From Rhodocyclaceae bacterium (GTDB lineage Bacteria; Pseudomonadota; Gammaproteobacteria; Burkholderiales; Rhodocyclaceae): a DNA stretch of 64,000 nucleotides. The stretch spans positions 1,112 through 65,111 of the forward strand of contig JAUXOM010000031.1 of assembly GCA_030682175.1 (NCBI GenBank), in the 5' to 3' direction. Below, piece after piece: positions 9,919-57,866 of the stretch. The notes beneath the pieces are model-generated. The model was not told where the DNA came from, did no database searches, and saw only the letters and a list, made by a program, of their open reading frames with translations. Position numbers and translations under genes: made by a program. Positions within the stretch are counted from its first letter, which is position 1, and every line of letters begins with the position of its first letter.

Positions 9919-9939
9919 TTAAATCACCCGCAGCGGTGA
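9919..9939 (+). repeat. 21-nt hairpin module
   Basis: TTAAATCACCCGCAGCGGTGA, one mismatch to 57800-57820, same CCCCCA^C flanks. Confidence 0.7.
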
Positions 9940-10013
9940 CCGGAGGACGTCGTCGCCCGTGGCGCGGCGTGGCGGGCGACTAGCCCGACAATCATTTCCA
10001 GTAGGAGTTATTT

Positions 10014-10496
10014 ATGCAAATCGATAAACATACAATAGTCACCCTGGCCTATAGCGTCACGGATAGCGAGGGCAATCTGATCGACGCGGGCGAGCATCCG
10101 CTGACCTATCTGCATGGCGGTTATGGCGGCATCTTCGAGAAAATCGAAGAGGAGCTTGTCGGCCAGGTGGCCGGTTTTCAGAAAGCAATCCGCCTGCAGC
10201 CCGAGGAAGCCTTCGGCGAATATGACGCCGAGCTCGTGATGATGGAACCGCGCGACCTGTTCCCGGAAGACATCGAGGTCGGCATGCAGTTCGAGCGCGC
10301 CTCCAGCAAGGAAGACGAAGACGGCATGCTGTTTACCATTACCGACATTGCTGAAGGCAAGGTGGTGGTCGATGGCAATCATCCGCTGGCCGGCATGGCA
10401 CTGGTGTTCTCCTGCACCGTCAGCGATGTGCGTGCTGCCACCCCCGAAGAAATCGAACATGGTCACGCGCACGGCGAGGGCGGGCATCTGCACTAA
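10014..10496 (+). CDS. slyD: FKBP-type peptidyl-prolyl isomerase SlyD
   Basis: YLHG, PEEAFGEYD, VDGNHPLAG, His-rich tail. Confidence 0.93.
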   Translation: MQIDKHTIVTLAYSVTDSEGNLIDAGEHPLTYLHGGYGGIFEKIEEELVGQVAGFQKAIRLQPEEAFGEYDAELVMMEPRDLFPEDIEVGMQFERASSKEDEDGMLFTITDIAEGKVVVDGNHPLAGMALVFSCTVSDVRAATPEEIEHGHAHGEGGHLH

Positions 10497-10502
10497 GTTG
10501 AG

Positions 10503-10710
10503 GCCCGCCCCTCCCATCTTCCCCGCGCGGGGAGGTGACTGTTGACTCGCTGCGCTCGTTTGTTACGGGGAGCGTTGTTTCGACTGGGAAGCGGATTGCG
10601 GCTGACGCCGCGTGCTGCCTTGCCTTGGCAGCTCTCAGGAGGCTATCTGCCTCATCTCTCCCGCGGGGAGAGAGGTCGGGAGAGCGGGATTGGCCCGGCG
10701 ACGAGGCTGC
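10503..10710 (+). repeat. Structured intergenic element, copy B
   Basis: Same conserved blocks as copy A, with an extra insertion inside the CTTGG...GGCCCGGCG loop. Confidence 0.8.
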
Positions 10711-10724
10711 CGGGGGGGCGTTAA

Positions 10725-11603
10725 TTGTCCGAGCGCTGGAGCGGGGTGTTGTGGATTGTCCTGTCGGCGGCGGGATTCGGCGCCATGGCGATCTTCGCCA
10801 AGCTGGCCTATCAGGACGGCGTTTCTCTTTCCACCATGTTGTTCCTGCGATTCAGCTTCGCCGGCCTGCTGCTGGCCGCCTGGGGCATGGCGCACGGCAT
10901 GCGTTGGCCACGCGGGCGCGATCTGCTCTGGCTGTTGGCCATGGGTGGCGTGGGCTATGTCGGGCAGGCCTATTGTTATTTCTCCGCCCTGCAACATGCC
11001 AGCGCCGGACTCGTGGCCCTGCTGCTTTACCTCTATCCGGCGATTGTCACGCTGTTGTCGGCGCTGGCTTTCGGCCGTCGCATCGGCCCCGCCCGCGGCT
11101 GGGCGGTGGCCGTGGCGCTGGCGGGCACGGCCTTGACGGTGGGTGGCGACCTGAACAGCGCGCCGCTGGGGATTGCGCTGGGCATCGGCGCCGCGCTGAT
11201 CTATTCGATCTACATCCTGGCTGGCGAGGGCGTGATGCGGCGGGTGCCGCCACTGCCGGCCGCGACGGTGGTGATGCTGGCCGCCGCTGCAGTGTATGGC
11301 GGGGCAGCGTTCAATGCCGGTCTGGCGCCGCCGGCAACATCCGCGGGGTGGCTGGCGGTGCTGGCGATTGCGATTTTCTCTACCCTGCTGGCGATCCTGG
11401 GTTTCCTCAAGGGCATGGAAAAACTCGGTGCCACCGATGCCTCGACGCTATCCACGCTGGAGCCGCTGATCACGATCGGCCTGGCCGCCATCGTGCTGGG
11501 CGAAGTGGTCAGCGAACTGCAACTGGTCGGCGGCGGATTGATACTGGCGGCGATCATCTTCCTCGCCCGGCACGGCGCGCGCCGGGTGGCTACTACAGAG
11601 TAA
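10725..11603 (+). CDS. DMT/EamA family transporter
   Basis: About 10 hydrophobic helices in two EamA repeats; TTG start. Confidence 0.88.
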   Translation: MSERWSGVLWIVLSAAGFGAMAIFAKLAYQDGVSLSTMLFLRFSFAGLLLAAWGMAHGMRWPRGRDLLWLLAMGGVGYVGQAYCYFSALQHASAGLVALLLYLYPAIVTLLSALAFGRRIGPARGWAVAVALAGTALTVGGDLNSAPLGIALGIGAALIYSIYILAGEGVMRRVPPLPAATVVMLAAAAVYGGAAFNAGLAPPATSAGWLAVLAIAIFSTLLAILGFLKGMEKLGATDASTLSTLEPLITIGLAAIVLGEVVSELQLVGGGLILAAIIFLARHGARRVATTE

Positions 11604-11674
11604 CCAGTCATGCGCCGAGCCGTCTCAAGCATGGCGCAGCCAGGCAGCCGGAGCCGCGCAGCGGCGAACCGGTG

Positions 11675-12481: not shown

Positions 12482-12487
12482 GTGTTT

Positions 12488-12715
12488 GCCCGCCCCCCTT
12501 TGTGCGCCGTTGGCGCATCCCTCGCTTCGCTCAGGACCGCTGCTACGCAGCGTCCTGCGGCCTGCGGCCTTGTGCCCCCCTCGCGGGGGGTTCTCGTTTG
12601 CGCGCTGCGCGCGGCTATTACGGGGTGCTTCGTTTGGCTGCAGAGCGGGTTGCGCCTGGCGGCGCGTGCCGCGTTTGCTTGGGGCGGCACTGCGCAAACA
12701 CTGCGGTGTGTCACG
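12488..12715 (+). repeat. Structured intergenic element, copy C
   Basis: Closely similar to 43327-43565, including the internal CTCGCTTCGCTCAGGACC...GTCCTGCGGCCTGCGGCCT module. Confidence 0.85.
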
Positions 12716-12755
12716 TTCATCGTCGTTGCTGGCGAGTTGGCGCGGGGAATCAGGC

Positions 12756-13238: not shown

Positions 13239-13253
13239 CGGCGGGTCGGAAGC

Positions 13254-13278
13254 AAAAGTCGGCGCTGGCGGGACGGCG
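13254..13278 (+). repeat. Core motif copy
   Basis: AAAAGTCGGCGCTGGCGGGACGGCG, perfect match. Confidence 0.9.
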
Positions 13279-13302
13279 TTGGGGGGCGCGGGGCGATCTG
13301 CC

Positions 13303-18432: not shown

Positions 18433-18505
18433 AAAAGTCGGCGTGACCGCAGGGAATCCCCTTTTCGGGACTGGCGGGATGAAATGCCCCGCATGGGGTA
18501 CGGCG
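18433..18505 (+). repeat. Core motif carrying both a 27-nt and a 21-nt hairpin insert
   Basis: AAAAGTCGGCG[TGACCGCAGGGAATCCCCTTTTCGGGA]CTGGCGGGA[TGAAATGCCCCGCATGGGGTA]CGGCG. Confidence 0.85.
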
Positions 18506-20241: not shown

Positions 20242-22707
20242 ATGAAAAGCCAGACCCACTGGTGGCATGGCCTGCTTGCGCGCAGCCTGATGGCGGTAGT
20301 GGGCATCGCCTTGTTGATGGGGGGCGCCTCCAGCGTATTGGTGAGCCGGGTCGCCGGAGAGCGCGCCTACGAGCAGGCCATGGTCAAACTGGACGAATTG
20401 CTCGACACCGTCGAGAGCACGGCCACCATTGCCGCTTTTGTTGGCGACGAACAGTTGGCGAAAGAGCTTGCGCAAGGCCTGATGCGCAATAGCGAGGTGT
20501 TGCGGGTAACAATACGCGGCAATGAACATGGTAATGAGCGCGAGTTGGCGCGCGCGGAACGGGCACCACCAAGCCCCGCTGTGAACGAAGGAAGTCCCCG
20601 CGGGACTGGCGGGATGAAGGATCCCGCAACGGGTGCGGAGAGCAACAGGACACTGATTCCATCCGTCAAACGCCAGTTGTATTCACCCTTTACCCCGCAC
20701 GAAGCCGTCGGCGAGATCCGTCTCGATGCGGATCAGGATGTCATCGATGCGCGCATGGCGAACGACGCCCGCTTCATCAGCCTGCTGCTGGCGGGTCAAT
20801 TGGCCCTGGTGATTGCCGCAGCGGCAGCCGCAATGCTGTTTCTGGTGGTGCGGCCAATCAAGGCAACCTCCGACCGCCTGCATCGCCTTGATGCCGCCAA
20901 GGGGGAGCGTCTTGCCGTGCCGGAAAGCCATGCACGCTCGGAACTGGGCCGCCTGGTCGAGGACATCAATAATCTCACGGCGCGACTGGTGGCAACCATC
21001 GGCATCGAGAGCGACCTGCTCCGTCAGCAGGTGATCGACCAGCGCAAATATCAGGATCTTTTCGAAAATGCGGCCTTTGGCATCTTTGTCGCCGATCATG
21101 CCGGACGTCTCGAGTCATTCAACCTTGCCTATGCATCATTGACCTGGCTGTCCCGGCGCAAGGAAGCCGTTGGCCGCTGGTTGACCGAAGCCGGTTGGGC
21201 AAACCCCGAACAACTGCTGGCCCTGTTGCGCAACAGCCTGAATGCGGCCGATAACCAGGCGTTGGAGGAAGACTTCCTGCTCATCGGCCAGCGGAAGGAT
21301 GAGCGCTGGCTGCATGTCGCCGTGACACCGCTGGGCAACGGCAGCGTGCAGGGCATCGTTACCGATGTGACGCAGCGCCGCAGCGAGGAAATCTCGGCCC
21401 GCCAGCTTGCCGTAACCGACGCCTTGACCGGGTTTGCCAATCGCTCCGGCCTGCAAAATGCCCTGTCCGGCATCGGTCCGGACACGCCGCCATTTGCCCT
21501 GGTGATGATCGATCTGGATGGCTTCAGGCGCATCAATGACGCCATGGGGTTTCAGGTGGGCGACCAGTTGCTGATGATGGTGGCGGCACGCATCCGCAAG
21601 CTGCTCGAAGACGGGGATCGGGCGGCGCGGGTTGGTGGCGATGAGTTTGCGCTGGTGCTCGCCGGTGAGCGCGGCAGCGCCGCGATCGATCTACGGGTTG
21701 GCCAACTGCTGCAGTTGATCGGGCAAGCTTATGACGTGAATATATCCGGCGGTCGCGAGGAGATCGACATTTCGGCAAGCGCCGGCATCGCCTTTTTCCC
21801 GAGCGACGGTGCCGATCTGCACGAACTCCTGCGCAGCACCGAACTCGCATTGAACAGCGTCCAGGCCAGCGGTGGGCGCAAATACTGTTATTTTGACCTT
21901 GCCCAGCAGACCGCCGTCGAGCATCGTCGCCGGCTGGAGGACGACCTGCGTCACGCGCTGGATGGCGGAGAGCTGCATCTGGTCTTCCAGCCGGTCGTCG
22001 ATCTCGCCAGCGGCCAACCGGTGGGCGCCGAAGCCTTGCTGCGCTGGTCGCATCCGGTGCGCGGCCTGGTTTCACCGGAAGTCTTCATCCCGCTTGCCGA
22101 GGATCTCGGTCTGATCGGCGAGATCGGCCTGATGGTACTTGACGAGGCCTGCCGGCAGGTGGCCGCCTGGCGCAAGGCCGGGCTCGATTTGTCTGTATCG
22201 GTCAACGTCTCGGTGCGGCAGATTCCGGAAGACCTGCCACCCTTGACCGTGGCCACCATGCTCAAGCAGCATGGTTTGCCGCCCACGGCGGTTGCCATCG
22301 AGATCACCGAGGGGGTGCTGATGAACAACGTTGCGGTGGCGCAAAGCTGGATCGAATACCTGCGTGCCGACGGCATGCGGGTTTATCTGGATGACTTCGG
22401 TACCGGGTATTCATCATTGTCATATCTGAAGCGCTTTGCGCTGGACACCGTGAAGATCGACAAGTCTTTCGTTCGCGACATGAGCGAGGACAACAATGAC
22501 CGCGCCCTGGTCGATGCGATTGTCACGATGGCGCGAAGTCTTGGCCTGCAGGTCATCGCCGAGGGCATCGAAACCCAGGCGCAGCTCGACATACTGCGCC
22601 AGATGGGTTGCGGCTACGGGCAAGGTTACTTCTTCTCGAAACCCGTGAAAGCCGATGAGTTCGTCACGGCCATTGCGAAAATCAGCGCCGTAGCAGCGCG
22701 CGGCTGA
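20242..22707 (+). CDS. Membrane sensor with HAMP-PAS-GGDEF-EAL domains
   Basis: Two TMs, HAMP-like ELGRL, GGDEF, EALLRW, DDFGTGYSSLSYL. Confidence 0.92.
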   Translation: MKSQTHWWHGLLARSLMAVVGIALLMGGASSVLVSRVAGERAYEQAMVKLDELLDTVESTATIAAFVGDEQLAKELAQGLMRNSEVLRVTIRGNEHGNERELARAERAPPSPAVNEGSPRGTGGMKDPATGAESNRTLIPSVKRQLYSPFTPHEAVGEIRLDADQDVIDARMANDARFISLLLAGQLALVIAAAAAAMLFLVVRPIKATSDRLHRLDAAKGERLAVPESHARSELGRLVEDINNLTARLVATIGIESDLLRQQVIDQRKYQDLFENAAFGIFVADHAGRLESFNLAYASLTWLSRRKEAVGRWLTEAGWANPEQLLALLRNSLNAADNQALEEDFLLIGQRKDERWLHVAVTPLGNGSVQGIVTDVTQRRSEEISARQLAVTDALTGFANRSGLQNALSGIGPDTPPFALVMIDLDGFRRINDAMGFQVGDQLLMMVAARIRKLLEDGDRAARVGGDEFALVLAGERGSAAIDLRVGQLLQLIGQAYDVNISGGREEIDISASAGIAFFPSDGADLHELLRSTELALNSVQASGGRKYCYFDLAQQTAVEHRRRLEDDLRHALDGGELHLVFQPVVDLASGQPVGAEALLRWSHPVRGLVSPEVFIPLAEDLGLIGEIGLMVLDEACRQVAAWRKAGLDLSVSVNVSVRQIPEDLPPLTVATMLKQHGLPPTAVAIEITEGVLMNNVAVAQSWIEYLRADGMRVYLDDFGTGYSSLSYLKRFALDTVKIDKSFVRDMSEDNNDRALVDAIVTMARSLGLQVIAEGIETQAQLDILRQMGCGYGQGYFFSKPVKADEFVTAIAKISAVAARG
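20571..20640 (+). repeat. Degenerate core motif with 24-nt and 21-nt inserts inside the EAL gene
   Basis: [TGAACGAAGGAAGTCCCCGCGGGA]CTGGCGGGA[TGAAGGATCCCGCAACGGGTG]CGGAG; left arm poorly conserved. Confidence 0.7.
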
Positions 22708-24452: not shown

Positions 24453-24867
24453 ATGGAACATCCGCACCACCTGGTCCACACTACGCACATTCCCGTACGC
24501 TGGGGCGACATGGACGCGCTGGGCCATGTCAACAACACCGTCTATTTCCGCTTTGCCGAGCAGGCGCGCATCGACTGGATGACCTCCCTGGGCTTTGCCG
24601 ATATCGTCGAAGTCGAGGAGGGGCCGGTGATCATCAACGCGAGCTGCACCTTTCTCAAGCCGATTACATTTCCGGCCACCGTGGAGGTGCGCACGCTGAT
24701 CGGCAAGCCGGGCAAAAGCAGTTTGCCGACCTATTACGAAATGCGCTGTGTCGGCCAAGGTGACGATGGCACGCTCTACGCCGAGGGCGCCGCCAAGATC
24801 GTCTGGTGGAATCCGCGCACCGGCAAGTCGCAGGCGCTGCCCGATTTCATTCGCGCGATTTACCCGC

Positions 24868-24875
<8 letters not shown>
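24453..24875 (+). CDS. Acyl-CoA thioesterase (4HBT/YbgC family)
   Basis: [17 protein letters not shown] hotdog motif. Confidence 0.9.
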
Positions 24876-26856
<1,981 letters not shown>

Positions 26857-27753
26857 TCAGGCGGCGCTGGTTTCCGCCGTCCAGCCAGTCCCACGGGGAT
26901 TTCCTGCGGTCACGCCGACTTTCTCGATGGCCAAGGTATCGGCCAGCCAAGGCAGCGTTTCACGCATCTCCTTGGCGAGGGTCCACGGCGGATTGACGAC
27001 GAAGACGCCGCTGCCGTGCATGCCGAGGCCTTCGGCGCCGGGGTTCTGCACGGTCAGCGTGACATTGAGCCAGTCCGGCGCGAGCTTCTTCAGCCGGCCG
27101 GCCAGTAGGATGCTTTCATTCCGCTGCAGCAGCGGATACCAGATCAGGTAAGTGCCGGTGGCGAAACGCGCCAGGCCTTCCTTCACGGCCGTGACCACGC
27201 GGGCATAGTCGCGCTTGTCTTCATAGGCCGGGTCGATGACGATCAGGCCGCGGCGCGGCGGTGGCGGCAGCAGGGTTTGCAGTCCGGTGAAGCCGTCCTC
27301 CTGGCGAATCGCCACACGCTTGCTGGCGTGCGGGTCGACAAACGCGACGGCCTCGCCCAGCAGGCGCACATCGGCCGGATGCAGTTCAAACAAGCGTAGC
27401 TGATCCCGCGGACGCAACAGGCGCAGCGTCAGCAGGGGCGAACCGGGGTAGCGGCGCAATTGGCCATCCGGGTTGTCGTGGCGCACGGCGGCAACGTAAG
27501 CGGCGAGCAGCGGCGGCAGGTCGGCGCGTGCCCATAGCCGGCCAATGCCATCCGCGTATTCGGGGCTGTGTTGCGCGGCATGGGACTTCGCCCGGCCGGC
27601 GTCGAACCGATAGCCGCCGGCGCCCGCATGGGTGTCGATCACCCAGTAAGGCTTGTCCTTCTGGTTGAAATAGGCCAGCGTCGCCAGCAAGACGGTGTGC
27701 TTGAGGACATCGGCGTGGTTGCCGGCATGGAAGACGTGGCGGTAGCTGAGCAT
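26857..27753 (-). CDS. rlmJ: 23S rRNA m6A2030 methyltransferase RlmJ
   Basis: MLSYRHVFHAGNHADVLKH, DTHAGAG, YPGSP, IDPAYE. Confidence 0.95.
   Translation of the reverse strand: MLSYRHVFHAGNHADVLKHTVLLATLAYFNQKDKPYWVIDTHAGAGGYRFDAGRAKSHAAQHSPEYADGIGRLWARADLPPLLAAYVAAVRHDNPDGQLRRYPGSPLLTLRLLRPRDQLRLFELHPADVRLLGEAVAFVDPHASKRVAIRQEDGFTGLQTLLPPPPRRGLIVIDPAYEDKRDYARVVTAVKEGLARFATGTYLIWYPLLQRNESILLAGRLKKLAPDWLNVTLTVQNPGAEGLGMHGSGVFVVNPPWTLAKEMRETLPWLADTLAIEKVGVTAGNPRGTGWTAETSAA
26875..26922 (-). repeat. Core motif with 24-nt insert inside rlmJ 3' end
   Basis: Reverse complement AAAGTCGGCG[TGACCGCAGGAAATCCCCGTGGGA]CTGGCTGGACGGCG. Confidence 0.88.
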
Positions 27754-27779
27754 GACGGGCGGGGGATAGAATGCGCGGC

Positions 27780-28610
27780 ATGAATGATACCTCCTCCCCG
27801 CGCCCGAAAATCCGCGCTGTGCGTGTTGCGCGGCACGTTGCCGCACCTGCTGCCGCGCCCGTCCAAGCGGCAGCGCCGAGTGGCGTGCGCATCTCGAAAC
27901 TGCTCGCCGAGCGCGGCCTGTGCTCGCGGCGCGAGGCCGATGCCTACATCGAGCGCGGGCTGGTGCATGTCAATGGCGAACAGGTGACGCAGCTCGGCAC
28001 ACGCGCCGCGCCGGATGCCGAGATCACGCTGGCGACGGCAGCCCGTGAGCAGCAGGCGCGGCAGGCGACGATTCTGGTGCACAAGCCGATCGGTTATGTG
28101 TCCGGCCAGGCCGAAGATGGCCATCAGCCGGCAATCGTCCTGGTCGTCCCCGCTGGCCAGATGGCCGGCCAGGTTGTCGATGGGCAACGCTTTCATGCCG
28201 GCTGCCTGAAGGGACTGGCGCCCGCCGGCCGGCTCGACATCGATTCGACGGGGCTGCTGGTGCTGACGCAGGATGGCCGCGTCGCGCGCCAGTTGATCGG
28301 TGCGGACAGCGACATCGAGAAGGAATATCTGGTGCGCGTCGAGGGGCGGCTCGATGACAAGGGACTGGCTTTGTTGAATCATGGCCTGTCGCTCGATGAC
28401 AAGCCCTTGCGCCCGGCCAGGGTGAGCTGGCAGAACGAAGACCAGCTGCGTTTCATCCTGAAAGAGGGGAAAAAACGGCAGATTCGCCGCATGTGCGAAC
28501 TGGTCGGTCTGCGGGTCACCGGCTTGAAGCGCGTGCGTATCGGACGCCTGGTGCTGGGCGACCTGCCTGTGGGGCAGTGGCGCTATTTAAGGCCGGATGA
28601 AAGGTTTTAG
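27780..28610 (+). CDS. rRNA pseudouridine synthase (RsuA/RluF family) with S4 domain
   Basis: [37 protein letters not shown]. Confidence 0.92.
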
Positions 28611-29240: not shown

Positions 29241-29243
29241 AAG

Positions 29244-29390
29244 GCCCTCCCCTCCCGGCCTCCCCGCATGGGGAGGTGACTGTTGCTCGCTGCGCTCGAA
29301 TATTACGGGGCGCGTCAATATTGATTCTGGTACGGATTGCGGCTGGCGCCGCGTGCCGCCTTTCCTTGGGGCGGCCCGGCGGAAAGGCTA
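29244..29390 (+). repeat. Structured intergenic element, copy D
   Basis: Conserved blocks as in copy A; stem GCCTTTC/GAAAGGC. Confidence 0.85.
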
Positions 29391-29395
29391 CATAG

Positions 29396-30295
29396 CTAAC
29401 GAAAGGCCAAATCCTCGCGCCGCAGCATGAACAGCTTGCCCTCACCGCTCGGGGTGTCGAGCCAGGTGAGCGGCAGTTCCGGGAAGGCGGCTTCGACGAT
29501 TTCCTTGTTGTGACCGACTTCCACGGCCAGCAGGCCGCCGGGCTTGAGGTGGCTTGCGGCAGCGGCCAGAATGCGCCGCACGATGTCGAGGCCGTCGGCG
29601 CCGGCGGCCAGTGCATTCTCGGGTTCGTGGCGGTATTCGGGCGGCAGATCGCGCATGGCCTGCGCGGTGACATAGGGCGGGTTGCTCAGGATGAAGTTGT
29701 AGCGGCGGCGGCCGAGCCCAGCGAACAGGTCGCCCTGTACCAGCTTGACGCGTTTTTGCAGCGCGTAATCGCTGACGTTGCGTTTGGCGACCGCCAGCGC
29801 TGCATCCGAAATATCGGCCGCATCGATTTTCGCGTTGGGGAAGGCATGCGCCATCAGGATGGCGAGGCAGCCCGAGCCGGTGCATAGATCGAGGGCACTG
29901 TCGATGCTGTAGGGATCTTCGATCCAGGGCGCGAAGCCGTCGACCAGCAGCTCGGCGAAATACGAGCGGGGAATCAGCACGCGCTCATCGACATAAAAGC
30001 GCAGGCCGGCCTGCCAGGCTTCGTGCGTCAGATAGGCGGCGGGGACGCGGCGGGCGATGCGCTGCTGCAGCAGTTCAAGTACCGCGCGGCGTTCCTGGCG
30101 CGCGAGGCGGGCATCCAGATACGGGTCGAGCTGGTCGGGCGGCAGGTGCAAGGCGGCAAGCACCAGCCAGGCCGCCTCGTCGTGGGCGTTGTCGCAGCCG
30201 TGGCCGAAAAACAGCTTGGCTTCATGGAAGCGGCTGGTGCCCCAGCGCAGCCAGTCGCGCACGGTGATGAGGTCGTCGAGCAGGGAATCGGTCAT
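29396..30295 (-). CDS. prmB: Ribosomal protein L3 glutamine methyltransferase
   Basis: VRDWLRW, VDERVLIPRS, LDLCTGSGCLAI, SNPPYV. Confidence 0.95.
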   Translation of the reverse strand: MTDSLLDDLITVRDWLRWGTSRFHEAKLFFGHGCDNAHDEAAWLVLAALHLPPDQLDPYLDARLARQERRAVLELLQQRIARRVPAAYLTHEAWQAGLRFYVDERVLIPRSYFAELLVDGFAPWIEDPYSIDSALDLCTGSGCLAILMAHAFPNAKIDAADISDAALAVAKRNVSDYALQKRVKLVQGDLFAGLGRRRYNFILSNPPYVTAQAMRDLPPEYRHEPENALAAGADGLDIVRRILAAAASHLKPGGLLAVEVGHNKEIVEAAFPELPLTWLDTPSGEGKLFMLRREDLAFR

Positions 30296-34886: not shown

Positions 34887-35306
34887 TCAGCCGCGGGTGT
34901 TCGATTGGGACGGGAAGCTGGCGAGGTCGACCGGCGCTAGCGGTTTCCAGCCCTTCTTGCGGTGCTCGGCAACGACATTGGTGAAAATGCCGCCGCGCAC
35001 AAAAAAACGCGCGGTCAGGCGCATGAACCGAGGCTTCAGCGTCCTGGCCAGATCGTCAAGGATGCGGTTGGTGACATCCTCGTGAAAATGCCCTTCGTCA
35101 CGGAAGCTCCAGATGTAGAGCTTCAGGCTCTTCAGCTCGACGCAAAGCTTGTCCGGCACATAGTCGAGTGTCAGCACCGCAAAATCCGGCTGGCCGGTTT
35201 TCGGGCACAGGCAGGTGAATTCCGGGATTTCCATGTGGATCTGGTAATCTCGTTGCGGAGCCGGATTGGTGAAGGTGTCGAGGGTTTTGACAGGTGCGCT
35301 GGACAT
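34887..35306 (-). CDS. queF: preQ0 reductase QueF (short type)
   Basis: [31 protein letters not shown]. Confidence 0.95.
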
Positions 35307-35408
35307 GGCGAATCGGGCAAGAGTTAAGGTCGGCGATTATAAGTCGCCGTCCCCGATGTTAGGCGGTGTGTCGGCTGCGCAGTCCGATGTGACGCGGCGC
35401 GCCGGCTG

Positions 35409-35475
35409 CGCCGTACCCCATGTGGGGCATTTCATACCCGCTGCGGGGCACTTTGTCCCGCCAGCGCCGACTTTT
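35409..35475 (-). repeat. Core motif with two tandem 21-nt inserts
   Basis: Reverse complement AAAAGTCGGCGCTGGCGGGA[CAAAGTGCCCCGCAGCGGGTA][TGAAATGCCCCACATGGGGTA]CGGCG. Confidence 0.85.
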
Positions 35476-40170: not shown

Positions 40171-40935
40171 GTGATCCGCTTCGCCTCGCTCGGCAGCGGC
40201 AGCAAGGGCAACGCGCTGCTCGTCGAGTCCGGGCGTACCCGCGTGCTGGTCGATTGCGGTTTCGGCCAGCGCGAAATGGCGCGCCGGCTGGAACGACTGG
40301 GTATTGAGCCGGCATCCGTCGATGCCGTCCTGGTCACCCACGAACATGCCGATCATGTCGGCGGCGTGGCCCGTTGCGCCGCCCGCTTTGGCTGGACGGT
40401 GCATGCCAGCCATGGCACGACGGCAGCCGCACGGCAGCTTGCCGACCTTGCCGTGCGGCGCTTCGACAGCCATGCCAGCTTCCCCATCGGCGACATCGAG
40501 ATACACCCCTATCCCGTGCCGCACGACGCGCGCGAGCCGACGCAGTTTGTATTTTCCGACGGAGCAGCACGTCTCGGTCTGCTCACCGACGCCGGCATGA
40601 TCACCCCCCATATCGTCGCCATGCTGGCCAAGTGTGCGGCGCTGGTGCTCGAAGCCAACCATGACGCCGCAATGCTTGCCAATGGCCGCTATCCCCCGCC
40701 ACTGAAGCGGCGCATCGCCGGCGGCTTCGGCCATCTCGACAATGCCGCCGCGGCCGGCCTGTTGCGCACGCTGGGTGGCGGGCGGCTGCAGCATGTGGTG
40801 GCCGCCCATCTTTCCGCGGAAAACAATACGCCTGACCTGGCGCGAACCGCCTTCGCCACTGCGCTGGGCTGCAGCACCGAATGGATCGGCGTGGCCGACC
40901 AGGCCACCGGCTGCGGCTGGCGCGAACTGCGGTAA
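40171..40935 (+). CDS. MBL-fold metallo-hydrolase (YycJ-like)
   Basis: SLGSGSKGN, THEHADH, PHDAREP, EANHD, AHLSAENN. Confidence 0.92.
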   Translation: MIRFASLGSGSKGNALLVESGRTRVLVDCGFGQREMARRLERLGIEPASVDAVLVTHEHADHVGGVARCAARFGWTVHASHGTTAAARQLADLAVRRFDSHASFPIGDIEIHPYPVPHDAREPTQFVFSDGAARLGLLTDAGMITPHIVAMLAKCAALVLEANHDAAMLANGRYPPPLKRRIAGGFGHLDNAAAAGLLRTLGGGRLQHVVAAHLSAENNTPDLARTAFATALGCSTEWIGVADQATGCGWRELR

Positions 40936-40958
40936 AAGTCGGAGCTGGCGGGACGGCG
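40934..40958 (+). repeat. Core motif overlapping the stop codon
   Basis: AAAAGTCGGAGCTGGCGGGACGGCG. Confidence 0.85.
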
Positions 40959-41052
40959 CTGATGGTTTTTCTCGCAGAAAGAGCCACATCCGGCAAGCCA
41001 TCTGTCATGTAGTAAGGCGCTTAGGGGCCGAATTGACCCTTCCAGCCCCGGG

Positions 41053-41334
41053 GCACACGGCAGCATCAGTCCGCAATTGGCCGAGTGCACTGGCTTCACC
41101 GCCGAGGATGCAACAGTGATTAAGACTTGGCTGCCGAAATTGTTCGAAAATGGCGCATCCTCGGCGCGGCCTGATTGCAGTATGGAGGTCGTCAAGGTCG
41201 TCTGGTGGCAACATGACAGCAAAGCCGGCAAGTATTCTTCCGCCAAGGTGCATGGTAGTTTGGCCGTGGCACCTGATGGCTCCATTTCGTTGGCAGATAT
41301 TCGCGTTAGACCTGAAATCATCGAGGGATTTTGA
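41053..41334 (+). pseudogene. cas7: 3' fragment of type I-C CRISPR cas7 (Csd2)
   Basis: AHGSISPQLAECTGFTAEDA...LFENGASSARPDCSMEVVKVVWWQH.SK.GKYSSAKVH matches my recollection of the Csd2 C-terminus; no N-terminal two-thirds and no proper start. Confidence 0.8.
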
Positions 41335-41336
41335 AC

Positions 41337-41543
41337 ATGACCGAAATTCACTTCATCGTCGAAGAAGCGCCCGAAGGCGGTTTTACTGCCCGCGCCGTCG
41401 GGGAGGACATCTTTACCGAAGCAGATGATCTGCCCGGTCTGCATGCGCAGCTGCGTGACGCCGTGCGTTGTCATTTCGACGACCACAAGAAACCGAGCGT
41501 GATCCGGTTGCATATCACGCGAGAAGAGGCGCTGGCGGTATGA
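41337..41543 (+). CDS. hicB: HicB-like antitoxin (short, upstream of toxin)
   Basis: EIHFIVEEAPEGGFTARAVGEDIFTEADDL...LRDAVRCHF fits the HicB partial RNase H fold. Confidence 0.7.
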   Translation: MTEIHFIVEEAPEGGFTARAVGEDIFTEADDLPGLHAQLRDAVRCHFDDHKKPSVIRLHITREEALAV

Positions 41544-41782
41544 AGCTGCCGCGCGATCTGTCCGGACCGGACCTGATCCGGCTGTTGGCGAAACTGGGCT
41601 ATACCGCTACGCGACAGGTCGGCAGTTACGTCCGGCTGACGACACAGGTTCACGGCGAACATCACGTCACCATTCCCAATCATGATCCGCTGCGCATCTG
41701 CACGCTGGCATCGATTCTTGCGGTGGCTGCGTCCCACCATGGAATCAGTCGGGAAGAACTGCTGAACCGGTTGCTGGGCTGA
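41540..41782 (+). CDS. hicA: HicA family toxin, catalytic His apparently replaced by Tyr
   Basis: MKLPRDLSG..L..LGY..RQVGSYVRL..HHVTIPNHDPLR..TL; GSY instead of GSH. Confidence 0.8.
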   Translation: MKLPRDLSGPDLIRLLAKLGYTATRQVGSYVRLTTQVHGEHHVTIPNHDPLRICTLASILAVAASHHGISREELLNRLLG

Positions 41783-41916
41783 AGCGCTTGGTGTGACTGA
41801 AGTTCCCGACCCCGTTCCCGAGCCAGTGGAACTTCATGTACGCGGCATGGCAAATTTAAAGCGGTGAATTTCGAGTTCCCGTCTGTCTTGCACGGCGCGC
41901 GTCGGTTGTTGTAGAG

Positions 41917-41939
41917 AAAAGTCGGCGCTGGCTTTACGG
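41917..41939 (+). repeat. Core motif copy, 3' part degenerate
   Basis: AAAAGTCGGCGCTGGCTTTACGG. Confidence 0.8.
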
Positions 41940-42020
41940 TTTAACGGACTGCTGTCGTATGGCGGACGGCGTTCGGATCTGGCGTTTATAATCGCGCCCC
42001 TTTCTCGTCCGTTTGTCCCC

Positions 42021-43325
42021 ATGAATCCAGTCACCATCGAATCGCTTGACTACGAAGGGCATGGCGTCGCCCATGTCGAGGGCAAGGCCATCTTCATCGA
42101 TGGCGCGCTGCCAGGCGAACTCGTTACCTTTACTTCTTACCGCCGCAAGCCGAAGTTCGAGAGTGCGGGCGTCGATGCTGTTCTCAAGACGTCCAGTCAG
42201 AGGGTTACGCCGGCCTGCCCGCATTTTGGCGTGTGCGGCGGCTGCAGCATGCAGCATCTGGATGCGACGGCACAGGTGGCCGCCAAGCAGCGGGTGCTGG
42301 AAGATGCCTTCTGGCATCTGTCGCGATTGAGGCCCGCGACGATCCTGTCGCCGATCATCGGTCCCGCCTGGGGCTATCGTCGGCGTGCGCGGCTGACGGT
42401 GCGCAAGGTCGAGAAAAAGGGTTGCGTGCTGGTCGGTTTCCATGAAAAGCGGCGCAGTTTTGTGGCTGACATGGATTCCTGCGCCGTCCTGCCAGCGCCG
42501 ATTTCTTCCCTGTTGCCGAAAATGCGCGAACTGATTGCGGCCTTGTCGATCCCCGACCGCGTGCCACAAATCGAGGTGGCCGCCGGCGACATGCCGACGG
42601 TGCTGGTGCTGCGCATTCTGGAAGCAATCTCAAATGACGACGCGGTGCTGCTGCGCGAATTTGCCGACCGGCATGGTGTGACGATCTACCTGCAAACCAG
42701 CGGGCCGGAAAGCGCCACATTGTTCCATCCGCCCGATGCGCCGATGCCGGCCTATCACCTGCCCGAGTTCGGCGTCACCCTGCGTTTTCGGCCGACCGAT
42801 TTCACGCAGGTCAATCATGATGTGAATCGGGTGCTGGTGCGGCGGGCGCTGGGGCTGCTGGATATCCAGCCGGACGACCGGGTTGCCGACATGTTCTGCG
42901 GCCTCGGTAACTTCACCCTGCCGCTGGCGCGCTGGGGTGCCCGGGTGGTGGGTGTCGAGGGGAGTGCGCCTTTGCTGGAGCGGGCGAAGGAGAATGCGGT
43001 GTTCAATGGTCTGGCCGACCGCATCGAATACCACGTGGCCAACCTGTTCAAGGTGACGCCGGAAAGCCTGGCGGCCTGGGGCAGCTTCGACAAGATGCTG
43101 ATCGATCCGCCGCGCGACGGGGCAATGGAACTCATCAAGTCGCTGGGCGGCCCAGGTGAGGCTGCACCTTCACGGATCGTCTATGTCTCGTGCAGTCCCG
43201 CAACACTGGCACGCGATGCCGGCGTGCTGGTGCATGAAAAGGGCTACCGGCTGGTTGCGGCGGGGGTTGCCAACATGTTCCCGCATACCTCGCACGTCGA
43301 ATCGATCGCGCTGTTCGCGCGGTAA
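42021..43325 (+). CDS. rlmD: 23S rRNA m5U1939 methyltransferase
   Basis: TRAM domain, [43 protein letters not shown]. Confidence 0.95.
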
Positions 43326-43326: not shown

Positions 43327-43731
43327 GACGCCCGCCCCCCTTTGTTTGGCTGCGCCGAATCCCTCGCTTCGCTCAGGACCGCCACTTCGTGGCGTCCTGC
43401 GGCCTGCGGCCTAGTGCCCCCTCGCGGGGGGTTCGATACAGATCGCTTTCGCTCACATATCACGGGGCGCTCTGATCAAATGTGCGTGCGGATTGCGGCA
43501 TTCTCCGCGTGCCGCGTTTGCTTGGGACGGCCCGGCGCAAACGCTGCGGTGTCTTTCACGGTCAAGACGCCCGCCCCCCTTCGCCCCCCTCGCGGGGGGT
43601 TCGATACAGATCGCTTGCGCTCCAATATCACGGGGCGCTACGATCAAGTGTGGTGCGGATTGCGGCATTCGCCGCGTGCCGCGTTTGCTTGGGACTGCCC
43701 GGCGCAAACGCTGCGGTGTCTTTCAGGTTAA
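43327..43731 (+). repeat. Two tandem structured elements, F1 (43327-43565) and F2 (43566-43731)
   Basis: Both begin GACGCCCGCCCCCCTT and end GCGGTGTCTTTCA; F2 lacks a ~73-nt internal module. Confidence 0.9.
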
Positions 43732-44944: not shown

Positions 44945-44987
44945 CGCCGTACCCCATTCGGGGCATTTCATCCTGGCAGCGCCGATT
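44945..44987 (-). repeat. Degenerate core motif with 21-nt insert
   Basis: Reverse complement AATCGGCGCTGCCAGGA[TGAAATGCCCCGAATGGGGTA]CGGCG. Confidence 0.8.
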
Positions 44988-44998
44988 CTTGCCGTTGC

Positions 44999-47820: not shown

Positions 47821-48567
47821 ATGTTGGCAATCATTGGTGGCAGCGGACTGACCCGGTTGTCCAGCCTGGAAATCGAGCGACGCGAGGTGGTGCGCACCCC
47901 CTACGGCGAACCTTCGGGAACGCTGGCCTACGGCCGGATCGGCCACCAGCAGGTGGTTTTTCTGGCGCGTCACGGGCATGGACATACCATTCCGCCGCAC
48001 CGCGTCAATTACCGTGCGAACCTCTGGGCGCTCGTGAAATCCGCCGGTGCGGATGGCATCGTTTCAGTCGCCTCGGTGGGCGGCATGCGCGATGACCTCA
48101 AGCCCGGAGCACTGGTCGTGCCGCACCAGATCATCGACTACACCTGGGGCCGGCTGGCCACTTTCTTCGATGGCGGCGATGCACCCGTGGTGCATGTGGA
48201 TTTCACCGAACCCTATGATCGGGCCTTGCGCGAGCGTCTGCTGTGCGCCAGCGACGCGGCGGGATTAAAGGTGTCCGGTGCGGCGGTATATGCCGCCACG
48301 CAAGGGCCGCGACTGGAAAGCGCCGCGGAAATCGAGCGCCTGGTCCGTGATGGCGCCGACATCGTCGGCATGACCGGCATGCCCGAGGCCGTGCTGGCGC
48401 GCGAATTGAAGACCCCTTACGCGGCGGTGTGCGTCGTGGCCAATTGGGCCGCCGGCCGCGGCGATTCAGCCAGCTCGATCCGTTTCGAGCAGATCGAGGC
48501 CGTGCTGCATGAGTCGATGGGCAAGGTGCGCAGTGTCATAGAACATCTTTGCACTGCAACCGTTTAG
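47821..48567 (+). CDS. mtnP: S-methyl-5'-thioinosine/thioadenosine phosphorylase
   Basis: IIGGSG, ARHG..H.IPPH.VNYRAN, TQGPRLES, GMTGMPE. Confidence 0.88.
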   Translation: MLAIIGGSGLTRLSSLEIERREVVRTPYGEPSGTLAYGRIGHQQVVFLARHGHGHTIPPHRVNYRANLWALVKSAGADGIVSVASVGGMRDDLKPGALVVPHQIIDYTWGRLATFFDGGDAPVVHVDFTEPYDRALRERLLCASDAAGLKVSGAAVYAATQGPRLESAAEIERLVRDGADIVGMTGMPEAVLARELKTPYAAVCVVANWAAGRGDSASSIRFEQIEAVLHESMGKVRSVIEHLCTATV

Positions 48568-48568
48568 T

Positions 48569-48660
48569 CGCCGTACCCCATGTTGGCGGCGCACCGGCTG
48601 CGCCGTACCCCATGCGGGGCATTTCATCCCACCAGCGCCGTCCCGCCAGCGCCGACTTTT
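48569..48660 (-). repeat. Core motif plus duplicated half-core with 21-nt insert and a truncated insert
   Basis: Reverse complement AAAAGTCGGCGCTGGCGGGACGGCG-CTGGTGGGA[TGAAATGCCCCGCATGGGGTA]CGGCG. Confidence 0.85.
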
Positions 48661-48665
48661 ATTCA

Positions 48666-48817
48666 GCAGCCTTGCCGCCGGGCCGCCCCAAGGCAAGGCG
48701 GCACGCGGCGCCAGCCGCAACCCGCGCCCAAGTTTTAACGGGGGCTCCCCGTAACAAACGAGCGCAGCAAGTCAACAGTCACCCCTCCCGTGAGGGAGGG
48801 GCTGGGGGAGGGTGGGT
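48666..48817 (-). repeat. Structured intergenic element, copy G
   Basis: Conserved blocks as in copy A; stem GCCTTGC/GCAAGGC. Confidence 0.85.
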
Positions 48818-54751: not shown

Positions 54752-54762
54752 GCGTTTCAGCC

Positions 54763-55488
54763 ATGACCATCGCCGCTTCTCCCAAATACCGGCGCATCCT
54801 GCTCAAGCTTTCGGGCGAAGCGCTGATGGGCAATGATGCCTTTGGCATCAATCGCGAGACGCTGGGGCGAATCGTCAATGAGATCAGGATGGTGACCGAT
54901 CTCGGTGTGGCGGTTGGCGTGGTAATCGGCGGAGGGAATATTTTTCGTGGCATGGCGGGGGCCGCCTCCGGCATGGATCGCGCCGCTGCCGACTACATGG
55001 GCATGCTGGCCACGGTCATGAATGCGATGGCGCTGGCGGATGCCATGCGCCAGGCCGGCTTGCCGGCGCGCGTGCAGTCGGCGCTCAAGATCGATCAGGT
55101 GGTCGAGTCCTACATCCGGGGCAAGGCGATCCGCTATCTGGATGATGGCAAGGTCGTCATCTTCGGCGGTGGCACGGGCAACCCCTTCTTCACCACCGAT
55201 ACGGCGGCGGCATTGCGCGGCGCGGAAATCGGTGCGGAGATCGTCCTCAAGGCCACCAAGGTGGATGGCGTGTATAGCGCCGACCCCAAAAAAGATCCGA
55301 CGGCGACACGTTTTTCCAGCATCAGCTTCGATGAGGCGATTGGCCGCAATCTGGCGGTGATGGATAGCACGGCGTTTGCCCTGTGCCGTGACCAGAAGTT
55401 GCCGATCAATGTGTTTTCGATCTTCAAGGCAGGTGCGCTGAAGCGCGTGGTGATGGGTGAGGATGAAGGCACGCTCGTACACTGTTAG
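54763..55488 (+). CDS. pyrH: UMP kinase
   Basis: [27 protein letters not shown]. Confidence 0.97.
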
Positions 55489-55497
55489 GAGTTTTTC

Positions 55498-56058
55498 ATG
55501 ATCATCGATGAACTTAAAAAAACCACCGAACACAAGATGCAGCGGAGCCTCGAGCTTCTTCGGCTGGACCTCGCCAAGGTGCGCACTGGCCGCGCCCATA
55601 CCGGGCTGCTGGACCATGTTCAGGTTGATTATTACGGCACGCTGATGGCGATCAACCAGGTCGCCAACATCACCCTGCTGGATGCCCGTACCATCGGTGT
55701 GCAACCGTGGGAGAAACCCATGGTTGCCAAAGTGGAGAAGGCGATTCGTGATGCCGATCTTGGCTTGAACCCGGCCACCCAGGGCGACATGTTGCGCGTA
55801 CCGATGCCGGTATTGACCGAAGAGCGTCGCCGCGACCTGATCAAGGTCGTCAAGAATGAGGGCGAGACCGCCAAGGTGGCGATTCGCAATCTGCGCCGCG
55901 ATGCCAACACTCACCTCAAGGACGCCCTCAAGAAGCATGAGGTTCCCGAGGATGAAGAGCGGCGTGCCCAGGATGATGTCCAGAAACTCACCGACAAATA
56001 TGTCGCCGAGGTGGACAAGCTGCTGGCTGAAAAAGAGAAGGATCTGATGGCCATCTAG
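55498..56058 (+). CDS. frr: Ribosome recycling factor
   Basis: RTGRA, QPWEK, TEERRR, IRNLRRD. Confidence 0.97.
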
Positions 56059-56082
56059 GCCATCTGTTCAGCCACGCCAACG

Positions 56083-56877
56083 ATGGCGGATTACAACAGT
56101 TCGACACTCACCATCCCGGAGTCTCGGGATGTGCCGCGTCATGTGGCGATGATCATGGATGGCAATGGCCGCTGGGCGAAGAAGCGTTTTTTGCCCCGCG
56201 TGGCCGGTCACCAGCAGGGGGTCGAGACGGTCCGGCAGGTCGTCAAGACCTGTATCGAGCATGGCATCGAATATCTGACGCTATTTGCCTTCAGTTCGGA
56301 AAACTGGCGCCGCCCGGCCGAGGAAGTCGGGTTTCTCATGAACCTGTTTGTCATGGCGCTCCAGCGCGAGGTCGGCCGTTTGCATAAGAACGGTGTGCGT
56401 TTGCGGGTGATTGGCGACCTGTCTGCCTTCGAACCGCGACTGATTGAGCTGATTCGCCGTGGCGAGAACCTTACGGCGGGCAATGACAAGCTGGTCCTGA
56501 CGATTGCCGCCAATTACGGTGGCCGCTGGGACCTGATGCAGGCGTTCAATGGCCTGGTTCTGGCGAATCCTGAAAAAGCCGGGGCATACACCGAGGCCGA
56601 TCTCGAGCCTTTCCTGGCGATGAGTTATGCCCCGGAACCCGATTTGTTCATTCGCACTGGTGGCGAGCAGCGCATCAGCAACTTTCTGCTCTGGCAACTG
56701 GCCTATTGCGAGCTGTTTTTTACCGACAAGTTCTGGCCGGATTTCGATGCGAACACACTGGATGCCGCCATTCAGAGCTATCGGCGGCGCGAGAGGCGCT
56801 TTGGCCGTACCAGCGAACAACTGCTCGACAAGAAAACAGTGCAGTCGACATTAAGTACCGCGGAGTCAAATGCTTAG
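56083..56877 (+). CDS. uppS: Undecaprenyl diphosphate synthase
   Basis: [34 protein letters not shown]. Confidence 0.97.
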
Positions 56878-57670
56878 GGCGCGGGTGATTACCGCGCTGT
56901 TTCTGGCCGCCGGTTTTCTTGCCGTATTGTTTTTTCTGCCCGAGTCCCTGGTCGGAATAGTGTTTGCCATCATTGCCGCATTGGCTGCCTGGGAATGGGC
57001 CGGTTTGATGAAGCCGGGCAAGCCGGGCGCAGCGTTTCGCCTCCTGTATGCCGGTTTAGTGCTCGGTCTGTGCGGCGCGCTCTGGGCCATGCCGTATGAC
57101 TATTCGACCTTGCCCGTATTAATGTGGTCGGTGTCCGCCCTGTTTTGGCTGTTCATCGTGCCAGTCTGGCTGATGCGTGGCTGGCGGCCCGGTTGGGCCG
57201 GATATGTTGTTGGCCTGATTCTGCTGGTACCCGCCTGGGCAGCGCTGGTGGCCTTGTATGCGCATGGCCCGCTGGTGCTCCTGGCGGTCATGGCGCTGGT
57301 CTGGGTCGCCGACATTGCAGCGTACTTTACCGGTCGGGCTTTCGGACGGCACAAACTGGCGCCCGCCATCAGTCCGGGAAAAACCTGGGAGGGCGTGGCC
57401 GGGGCCGTTGTCGGCGTAGTGCTGGTTGGCCTGCTCCTCAGTAAGCTTCTGCCGCTGGCTCATGGCCTGGGCTGGGTGCCGCTGGCCGGTTTCCTGCTGC
57501 TCTTTACGGCATTCAGCATCATCGGCGACCTGTTTGAATCGCTGATCAAGCGCCAGGCCAACATGAAGGACAGCAGTCAGATGCTGCCAGGCCATGGTGG
57601 CATACTGGACCGCATCGACAGTCAGATGTCCACCCTGCCGCTGGCGGCTTTGACGCTGCATTGGATATAG
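56870..57670 (+). CDS. cdsA: Phosphatidate cytidylyltransferase
   Basis: [33 protein letters not shown]. Confidence 0.96.
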
Positions 57671-57676
57671 AGTAAT

Positions 57677-57866
57677 TGGCCCCCCACGCTCGTAAATTCG
57701 ACTCGCTGCCCCCCACAGGGGGGCGCATGCCTCCTTGGGGCGGCCCGGCGGAGGCATGGGTGGCCCCCCACGCTCGCAAATTCGACTCGCTGCCCCCCAT
57801 GAAATCACCCGCAGCGGTGACGGGTGAACTTATGCCTCCTTGGGACGGCCCGGCGGAGGCATGGTG
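57677..57866 (+). repeat. Two tandem hairpin elements (family H); second carries a 21-nt module and overlaps the dxr start
   Basis: GGCCCCCCACGCTCG.AAATTCGACTCGCTGCCCCCCA...ATGCCTC-CTTGGG(G/A)CGGCCCGGCG-GAGGCAT twice. Confidence 0.88.

Follow-up and report, generated by a model that had tools for sequence, protein, structure and literature searches.

Short tagged hairpin modules at fixed bonds of a family-wide 24-nucleotide repeat in Rhodocyclaceae

Introduction

Elements of the IS200/IS605 kind carry subterminal hairpins at both ends, span hundreds of bases or more, and are moved by a transposase dimer that binds two hairpins. Here we describe hairpin modules of 21–27 nucleotides (nt) in a 64,000-nt stretch of DNA, hereafter the window, from a Rhodocyclaceae bacterium (GenBank assembly GCA_030682175.1, contig JAUXOM010000031.1, positions 1,112 to 65,111 of the forward strand). 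The modules fall into three families, M1, M2 and M2c, and lie at exact bonds of two host repeats, a 24-nt core and a repeat of ~84 nt. Among described systems, one point of comparison is provided by repetitive extragenic palindromic (REP) sequences and the REP-associated tyrosine transposases (RAYTs). RAYTs are HUH nucleases that act as monomers, binding a tagged hairpin and cutting next to it; they have been contrasted with the IS200/IS605 transposases, and how they spread REPs is still unsettled (PMC3479197). In Thauera sp. MZ1T, GTAG-1 REPs are short-stemmed, tandem and partly intragenic, and REPs are found in mosaics, the bacterial interspersed mosaic elements (PMC3733652, PMC3479197, PMC3116915). 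Rickettsia palindromic elements (RPEs) of ~100–150 bp encode a conserved peptide (PMC10969869), and NTS/SRM repeats, which bear a CGTC-type tag, flank the gene for the GIY-YIG single-strand nuclease Ssn (PMC11893778).

The modules lack several of the features that define REP/RAYT systems, IS200/IS605 elements, MITEs (miniature inverted-repeat elements of DDE transposons), RPEs and Ssn/NTS systems, and behave most like the first two. They have the tag-plus-hairpin layout of REPs (PMC3479197, PMC3733652), and, as in REP/RAYT systems, they are tagged short hairpins of 20–40 nt in high copy number (152 M2, ~88 M1 and 27 M2c), occur in lineage bursts and tandem clusters, are found within open reading frames (ORFs), nest in mosaics with other short motifs, encode no protein, and share their genome with a Y1 HUH gene, a type of gene that acts in trans in REP systems. 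Unlike REPs, they carry the tag GAAAT rather than GTAG or CGTC, have stems of just 4–6 bp, stand singly or in direct tandem rather than in inverted doublets (REPINs), and occupy a single exact bond within a different repeat that is not palindromic. Like IS200/IS605 elements, they leave the target unduplicated, keep strictly to one orientation, insert 3' of a short specific sequence with the preference on the 5' side only, and have a hairpin, and seamless excision would be expected; unlike those elements, a module has one hairpin and measures 21–27 nt. RPEs, too, are palindromic repeats that lie in frame inside unrelated genes and lengthen their proteins, but at a much greater size and with no described landing repeat (PMC10969869), whereas the modules have a fixed landing repeat and an exact bond. 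NTS/SRM repeats are likewise oriented hairpin repeats that bear a non-palindromic tag, number in the hundreds and have a link to the processing of single-stranded DNA (PMC11893778); unlike them, the modules do not accompany a GIY-YIG gene, that of the present genome having unrelated repeats around it and no module or core within ~1.5 kb.

Results

Three module families and their insertion bonds

An initial annotation of the window, made from the sequence alone, had described hairpin modules inserted at fixed positions. Each copy that it cited was found at its place, and the fixed positions hold throughout the source genome, hereafter G000, a 3.49-Mb draft assembly of 153 contigs with 4.45% contamination (the G+C content of the window is 62%). 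The host of M1 and M2 is a sharply bounded, non-palindromic core of 24 nt, AAAGTCGGCGCTGGCGGGACGGCG, which is itself a multiple of three in length and is internally repetitive (CGGCG-N9-CGGCG). G000 contains ~590 copies of the core at three or fewer mismatches, with conservation stopping at the edges of the 24 nt; empty cores number 572–624, depending on whether three or four mismatches are allowed, and outnumber filled ones ~4:1. Approximately one-third of core copies fall within open, coding-like frames, where the commonest reading is K-V-G-A-G-G-T-A, and the orientation of intergenic cores relative to neighboring genes shows no preference. The core motif is letter-identical in many Rhodocyclaceae records, including those of Sulfuritalea, Methyloversatilis, Propionivibrio and Azonexus. 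A genic core at 42482 has equal length in six genomes, and therefore the core is not an indel there; similarly, the stretch of rseP that contains a core copy is presumably of the same length in E. coli RseP.

M1 has the consensus TGACCGNAGGRAATCCC-loop-GGGA, with a loop of 3 nt in the 24-nt form and 6 nt in the 27-nt form, and lies after the CGGCG that ends at position 10 of the core (GTCGGCG^CTGG). Among the M1 copies of G000 with core-like flanks, 46 are 24 nt and 33 are 27 nt long, and three others measure 22, 23 and 29 nt; a right flank parsed wrongly gave a further seven seed matches a score of 18 nt. M1 also occurs outside cores in a second context, GGGTTG^M1^CGAGCG, within the ~84-nt repeat. 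M2 (consensus TGAAATGCCCCGCAKSGGGTA) is 21 nt long and is represented by 152 units, as counted with a fixed 21-nt pattern that allowed no indels; one 20-nt variant was found apart from this count. It lies after the GGGA that ends at position 19 of the core (GGGA^CGGCG), as a single unit or as two to three units in direct tandem, and two M2 sequences recur identically, 21 and 17 times, in G000. In tandem arrays the first unit usually starts with CGAAG, CAAAG or CGGCG and the last with TGAAA. Indeed, about one-quarter of all M2 units, mostly those that come first in an array, start in one of these three ways, so that the earlier statement that nearly all modules begin with TGA fails for these units. 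M2c (consensus TGAAATCACCCGMAGCGGTGA) is a third family of 21 nt. All 27 of its copies in G000 lie in the loop CCCCCCA^CRGGGGGG of the ~84-nt repeat, ~40 such loops being empty; the CCCCA^C sites of the initial annotation prove to belong to this separate family.

To define position and orientation, we used strict sequence patterns across the whole of G000, which returned 71 M2 units at GGGA^CGGCG and 30 M1 units at GTCGGCG^CTGG; none was reversed, and none lay at the junction of the other family. In dinucleotide shuffles of the window, the expected number of matches was 0 for M2 and 0.83 for M1, as against four observed for each. Target duplications were absent from the module junctions, and the earlier claim to this effect was confirmed by exact junctions against empty orthologous sites. 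The combination of terminal inverted repeats and target-site duplication typical of MITEs is missing from M1 junctions and from most M2 junctions; the minority of M2 units led by CGGCG mimic a 5-bp repeat at the junction.

All three families contain stem-loops of 4–6 bp (−2 to −4 kcal/mol), one per module. The short stem-loop that the initial annotation ascribed to each module is therefore present, but it is weak and no better than in shuffled sequences. M1 and M2 resemble one another (p ~0.001) through GAAAT-CCCCG..TGGG, and the conserved 5' tag of the modules is GAAAT, or GAAGT in B-type M2. M2 and M2c have the leader and the loop in common and differ in two stem pairs that have changed in a compensatory way, from G.T to C-G and from C-G to A-T. 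The three families thus follow a common design that consists of a leader, the GAAAT tag, a mini-hairpin of a C-run and a G-run, and a terminal A. No Rfam family was matched in the window, and a literature search for the exact module sequences found no paper. One hybrid unit, at position 5139 on the minus strand of contig C49, reads AAAGTCGGCG-TGACCGAA-TGAAATCCCCCGCAGCGGGTG-CGGTG; here the first 8 nt of M1 are followed by an M2-like unit, all within one core.

Orthologous cores differ in occupancy among close relatives

We compared the cores of the window with syntenic DNA from five congeners. (The relatives mentioned in this work are labeled G002, G008, G009, G015, G017, G151, G152, G153, G157 and G158.) A tree built from 4.2 kb, ((G008,G152),(G151,G153,(G000,G015))), places G015 as the sister of G000. 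Occupancy differs at nine orthologous cores among G000, G015, G151 and G153, with exact junctions. The same orthologous core can be empty, filled with M1, filled with M2 or doubly filled among sister species, which bears out the site-specific insertion that the initial annotation had proposed.

An intergenic core at 18434–18505 on the plus strand contains both modules; its left half (18434–18443) is followed by a 27-nt M1 (18444–18470), CTGGCGGGA (18471–18479), M2 (18480–18500) and CGGCG (18501–18505). At this site only M1 is found in G153, and the core is empty in G015 and G151. A degenerate core at 20570, also on the plus strand, lies inside a gene for an EAL/GGDEF/PAS protein (20242–22707) and contains a diverged 24-nt M1 (20582–20605) and a diverged 21-nt M2 (20615–20635); here G015 and G151 have only M2 and G153 has only M1, in frame throughout. 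That M1 at 18434 and 20570 is present in G000 and G153 but not in G015 and G151 implies that the module was either lost precisely or gained more than once at one bond. The initial annotation, which would be refuted if empty cores proved to derive by deletion from ancestral filled forms, therefore withstands this comparison only in part, as two sites may have been filled ancestrally and then emptied by precise loss.

Two further M1-filled cores, both on the minus strand, lie in coding sequence. At 24961–25008, a core with a 24-nt M1 (24975–24998) lies in the N-terminal region of an acetoacetyl-CoA synthetase frame (24748–26856), in antisense reading; this M1 is also present in G015 and G151 and is missing from G153, G008 and other congeners. 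At 26875–26922, a core with a 24-nt M1 (26889–26912) lies in the C-terminal tail of RlmJ (gene 26857–27846). The orthologous core is empty in G151 and in six other congeners, and the empty core of G151 has the same private variant, CTGGCTGGA, as the filled core of G000. Because this variant was kept beside the module, the module entered the resident core and did not replace it.

The remaining filled cores of the window, all on the minus strand, contain M2. An intergenic core at 35409–35474 holds two tandem units, a B-type (CAAAGT...) at 35435–35455 and an A-type (TGAAAT...) at 35414–35434; in G153 the gene-side flank (window 35068–35308) adjoins a core with M1, an assignment made from one flank, the match to both having failed. 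A core variant at 44945–44989 contains M2 (44950–44970) and is empty in G015 and G153. At 48601–48659, the core (48636–48659) is followed by a duplicated unit, CTGGTGGGA (48627–48635), M2 (48606–48626) and CGGCG (48601–48605). Here the 14-nt core sub-unit CTGGYGGGA+CGGCG is tandemly duplicated at 48627–48640, and the duplication is missing in G153, which has one empty core; G015 has a core with M1, as matched by one flank only (window 48311–48581, 98%). The rlmJ, 44945 and 48606 sites are filled in G000 only, and most such cases of G000-only occupancy are gains.

The converse case is the core at 40935–40958 on the plus strand, which is empty in G000 and filled with M2 in G151 only, the G151 flanks mapping to window positions 40660–40956 and 41981–42277. 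An additional observation at this site is a block of ~1 kb (40959–41980) directly after the core, which is missing in G151, where the flanks meet at a single M2-bearing core. The comparison suggests that this block is either an insertion at a core or a deletion in G151.

The M2c sites vary as well. The module TTAAATCACCCGCAGCGGTGA at 9919–9939 (plus strand) lies in the loop of a C-rich/G-rich hairpin in a larger repeat; G153 carries M2c at this site, and G151 is without a module. An 84-nt repeat in tandem has another M2c in its second copy, at 57800–57820 (plus strand), and an empty loop, CCCCCCA^CAGGGGGG, at 57715/57716 in its first (57677–57760).

Filled cores lengthen proteins in frame

In G000, 29 filled cores lie in coding sequence, where a module adds 7–9 residues. 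Together with the EAL/GGDEF protein, acetoacetyl-CoA synthetase and RlmJ, which Pfam confirmed as host genes in the window, they substantiate the initial claim that proteins are lengthened without a frameshift. The host proteins are unrelated to one another, and the modules lie in tails or linkers. Cores that are empty, filled with M1 and filled with M2 are genic in 33%, 33% and 27% of cases, respectively. Since lengths of 21, 24 and 27 nt preserve the frame, filled cores persist equally well in the genic third of cores. None of the genic filled cores is in the frame that would read the TGA of the module, a frame that holds 16% of genic empty cores. The idea that this TGA serves as a stop codon was rejected, since it does so in 1 of 132 cases.

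The proposal that module lengths are always multiples of three holds for the 79 core-flanked M1 copies of 24 or 27 nt and for M2 and M2c at 21 nt, but not for the M1 copies of 22, 23 and 29 nt or for the M2 of 20 nt. The pattern rests on three or four independent lengths (24 for the core, 24 and 27 for M1, and 21 for M2/M2c) and would arise by chance in ~1–4% of cases; the duplication of 14 nt at 48627–48640 is an event that is not a multiple of three. By eye, two other ORFs of G000 bear on coding repeats: a flavoprotein-like ORF (G000:C52:18199-19015) contains an in-frame core with a 27-nt M1, and a PriA-like ORF (G000:C12:57-1872) has long proline-, glycine- and arginine-rich stretches that are apparently repeat-derived.

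Modules are confined to few lineages

In the comparison across genomes, M2 was counted 81 times in G000 and 85, 58, 54 and 14 times in four congeners, was absent from 25 congeners, and was present in 4–8 copies in three other genera of the family. M1 counts were 88 in G000, followed by 72, 67, 63 and 35, the last being that of G008, which has no M2; the numbers of the two families vary independently. The surroundings of exact cores in other genera, 759 kb in all, contained 142 empty cores, one M1 and one M2. These counts suggest lineage-specific bursts of two independent element families at a landing site that would be much older.

Candidate enzymes

The initial annotation had suggested a search for HUH/RAYT or reverse transcriptase genes that carry the module hairpins. 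Three Y1 (HUH) genes and two reverse transcriptase genes were found in G000, and none of the Y1 genes is flanked by modules. One of the three encodes a true RAYT of 187 amino acids (aa) (G000:C7:83597-84157, NF047646 141.6 bits), both flanks of which are GTAG-tagged REP doublets, GTAGGTCGGGCGCAAGCCCGAC, as in a classical REPtron. Within the genus it was found in G000 and G151 only. We therefore rejected the classical RAYT as a common mover of the modules, as it has GTAG REPs of its own and is not in the module-rich G153 and G015. By eye, the core, written GTCGGCGCTGGCGGGAC, resembles the GTAG REP GTCGGGCGCAAGCCCGAC in layout and at ~13 of 18 positions; the second arm of the core is not complementary, and the likeness may be coincidence in G+C-rich DNA.

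The other two Y1 genes are RAYT-like, encode proteins of 243 aa (contig C122) and 272 aa (contig C44), and score under the NCBIfam cut-off. The 243-aa type has on its flanks inverted copies of a repeat of 18–22 nt, AAACCGTGGTCTGWCCCC(TATT), here called REP-Y, in a REPtron-like arrangement: REP-Y lies upstream in six of six loci and downstream as well in four of the six, the G015 locus being cut by a contig end. A REPtron gene is flanked by its own REPs, and no gene stands in this relation to the modules: the true RAYT is flanked by GTAG-tagged REPs of another family and the 243-aa gene by REP-Y, not by M1 or M2. A Y1 homologue is present in five of five module-rich congeners. Solitary REP-Y exactly abuts the 3' end of the core (CGGCG^G) and is enriched at M2-bearing cores (6/79 vs 4/625, p = 2e-4); any likeness between M1 and REP-Y (GGAAA..CCGTGG) is marginal (p = 0.03). 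Taken together, we regard the link between Y1, REP-Y and the modules as a lead rather than a result.

At the C122 locus (G000:C122:8656-10218), where REP-Y reads AAACCGTGGTCTGTCCCC, the Y1 gene runs with its stop codon into the beginning of a core (TGAAAGTCGG), an overlap also present in G009 and G017, and a toxin-antitoxin pair lies between the 243-aa Y1 gene and the next core. Contig C7 has a cluster of REP-Y at cores. In particular, at least five genes in G000:C7:124000-139000 are followed by a composite of core, optional M2 and REP-Y on the opposite strand, with further plain cores between other genes, an arrangement that recalls the Thauera REP arrays beside exopolysaccharide genes (PMC3733652).

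Other enzymes were considered and set aside. Both reverse transcriptase genes resemble those for group II intron proteins, and reverse transcriptases were rejected as movers; one of the two genes lies ~1.2 kb from an M2-like copy that is outside the intron. The group II intron at G000:C64:90217-92786 encodes a 440-aa reverse transcriptase/maturase, and an M2-like unit lies ~230 nt upstream of its putative 5' end (GTGCG). An Ssn-like GIY-YIG nuclease was rejected as well, as the sole small GIY-YIG gene (contig C145) has unrelated repeats as flanks, no core, M1 or M2 within ~1.5 kb and no REP-Y nearby. A search for genes between modules returned 39 module pairs 0.25–2.6 kb apart, as against ~51 expected by chance, and the genes between inverted module pairs look housekeeping by eye (PriA, ArgS, LpxC, IspG, LipA and others).

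Discussion

Our comparison of filled and empty orthologous cores supports the view that the modules are site-specific micro-insertions that are gained, and probably lost, precisely and that lengthen proteins in frame. Of the mechanisms considered, we find the likeliest to be that a RAYT-like Y1 enzyme mobilizes the tagged mini-hairpin in trans in single-stranded form, a reading to which we would give an even chance. M1, M2 and M2c would then be non-autonomous REP-like micro-elements that are copied or moved, in one orientation, into fixed bonds of the core and the ~84-nt repeat through single-strand 'peel-and-paste' transposition, with a Y1 (HUH) transposase of RAYT/IS200-IS605 type as the enzyme. 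The 243-aa and 272-aa RAYT-like genes are the candidate movers, the bases 5' of the junction may direct insertion, and precise removal would be probable. Consistent with the role of the 5' bases, M2-filled cores are richer in the consensus GGG just 5' of the junction (position 18 is non-consensus in 7% vs 22%), the 3' side of M2 junctions is not homogenized, and, taken as a whole, filled cores match the consensus no better than empty ones do. This preference, on the 5' side only, suits 5' target recognition better than co-conversion. The analogy to IS200/IS605-like HUH transposition in the initial annotation holds for the anatomy, in which duplication is absent, orientation is strict, the target preference is 5' and precise loss is probable, and does not extend to a proven enzyme.

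Several observations weigh against mobilization by a Y1 enzyme. IS200/IS605 elements need two end hairpins, and a module has one; REPs, which are thought to move as inverted doublets, bear a GTAG or CGTC tag, and the modules, which stand singly or in direct tandem, bear neither. The stability of the module hairpins is marginal and not significantly better than that of shuffles. Modules occur in G008 (with 35 M1), G158 and G002, where neither a Y1 homologue nor REP-Y was detectable; conversely, modules are almost missing from G157 and G009, although both have the Y1 gene and REP-Y. M1, M2 or M2c flanks none of the Y1 genes, and because the congeners are related, the association of Y1 with modules does not consist of independent trials. 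No replication-strand bias was detected with a GC-skew proxy on contigs, which also missed gene-strand bias and therefore had low power.

The main rival to a Y1 enzyme is microhomology-templated copying, which we consider possible but doubtful. According to this explanation there is no dedicated enzyme; after rare founding events, modules would spread and be erased as short tracts are copied from one core to another, by gene conversion or by template switching at microhomologies, with homology provided by core halves of 10–14 nt or by the arms of the ~84-nt repeat. Such copying would fit the scarless junctions, the occurrence of both gain and loss, an orientation set by the host repeat, the near-confinement of modules to repeats that give homology on both sides, and their presence in genomes without a Y1 homologue, and the consensus GGG 5' of the M2 junction could mean co-conversion. 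However, arms of 10–14 nt are far under the needs of RecA-dependent recombination, and there is no homogenization on the 3' side of M2 or on either side of M1 (filled cores have 1.65 and 2.23 mismatches vs 1.55 for empty ones). The private variant in rlmJ was kept, and M1 in the unrelated context GGGTTG^..^CGAGCG, together with the M2 design in a hairpin loop, would require insertion de novo. Moreover, passive copying leaves the conserved tag and the covarying hairpin unexplained. An enzyme that acts on the core itself, such as a clade-wide uptake- or recombination-related nuclease or recombinase for which the two junctions are cleavage points, appears unlikely. Both junctions do bracket the central CTGGCGGGA and border on the two CGGCG pentamers, REP-Y lands at CGGCG^ as well, the core is letter-identical in many genera, and the genic core at 42482 is free of indels across six genomes. 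Yet the core is family-wide and the modules are in few lineages (142 empty vs 2 filled cores in the 759 kb from other genera), the M2c host sequence is completely different, and no candidate gene was identified, the small Ssn-like GIY-YIG gene having unrelated flanks.

It is highly improbable, and already largely refuted, that filled forms are ancestral and empty cores are deletions, or that the modules are selected peptides or RNA hairpins rather than mobile DNA. The M1 at 18434 and 20570, common to G000 and the more distant G153 and missing in closer relatives, and the multiple-of-three lengths would agree with such a view. Against it stand the excess of empty over filled cores (~4:1, and 142:2 in other genera), the modules at rlmJ, 44945 and 48606 that are unique to G000 against several empty relatives, the absence of a preferred orientation of cores relative to genes, the lack of an Rfam match, the use of the module TGA as a stop in 1/132 cases, and the unrelated host proteins with sites in tails or linkers. 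A broader reading, which we raise tentatively as a possibility short of an even chance, is that the modules represent an undescribed class of mobile DNA, namely codon-phased hairpin cassettes of 21–27 nt that enter and leave without a scar and edit proteins in frame. Their pads would be an uptake-signal-like 24-nt tag and the loop of another repeat, and their mover a single-strand-specific enzyme with one tagged mini-hairpin as its minimal substrate.

If the modules are mobile at 21–27 nt, the minimum for a transposable unit would come down to one tagged hairpin of 4–6 bp, and the modules would be among the smallest site-specific mobile DNA known to us. They also provide a natural case of the scarless, frame-preserving, site-specific gain of 7–9 codons, and the filled and empty orthologous sites constitute a ready set of substrates for the biochemistry of RAYT-like Y1 enzymes. 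Finally, the modules mark the 24-nt Rhodocyclaceae tag as an insertion hotspot with three exact bonds, which constrains what the tag may be.

Other cores and repeats of the window

The window contains further cores that are empty in G000. One at 13255–13278 (plus strand) has orthologous copies in G015, G151 and G153 that are empty too; others are at 132, 2270 (minus strand), 3950 (minus strand), 4700, 30300, 40935, 42482 (minus strand), 53774 and 59486. Larger modular repeats of 84–240 nt with several hairpins lie at 57677–57870, 2054–2294, 12488–12715, 29241–29402, 43330–43725 and 48660–48790. One type of modular repeat, without a match in Rfam, has a near-constant loop, TTGGGGCGGCCCGGC, and closing stems that covary among copies (ATGCCTCC/GGAGGCAT, GCCTTGTC/GACAAGGC and GCGTTTGC/GCAAACGC).

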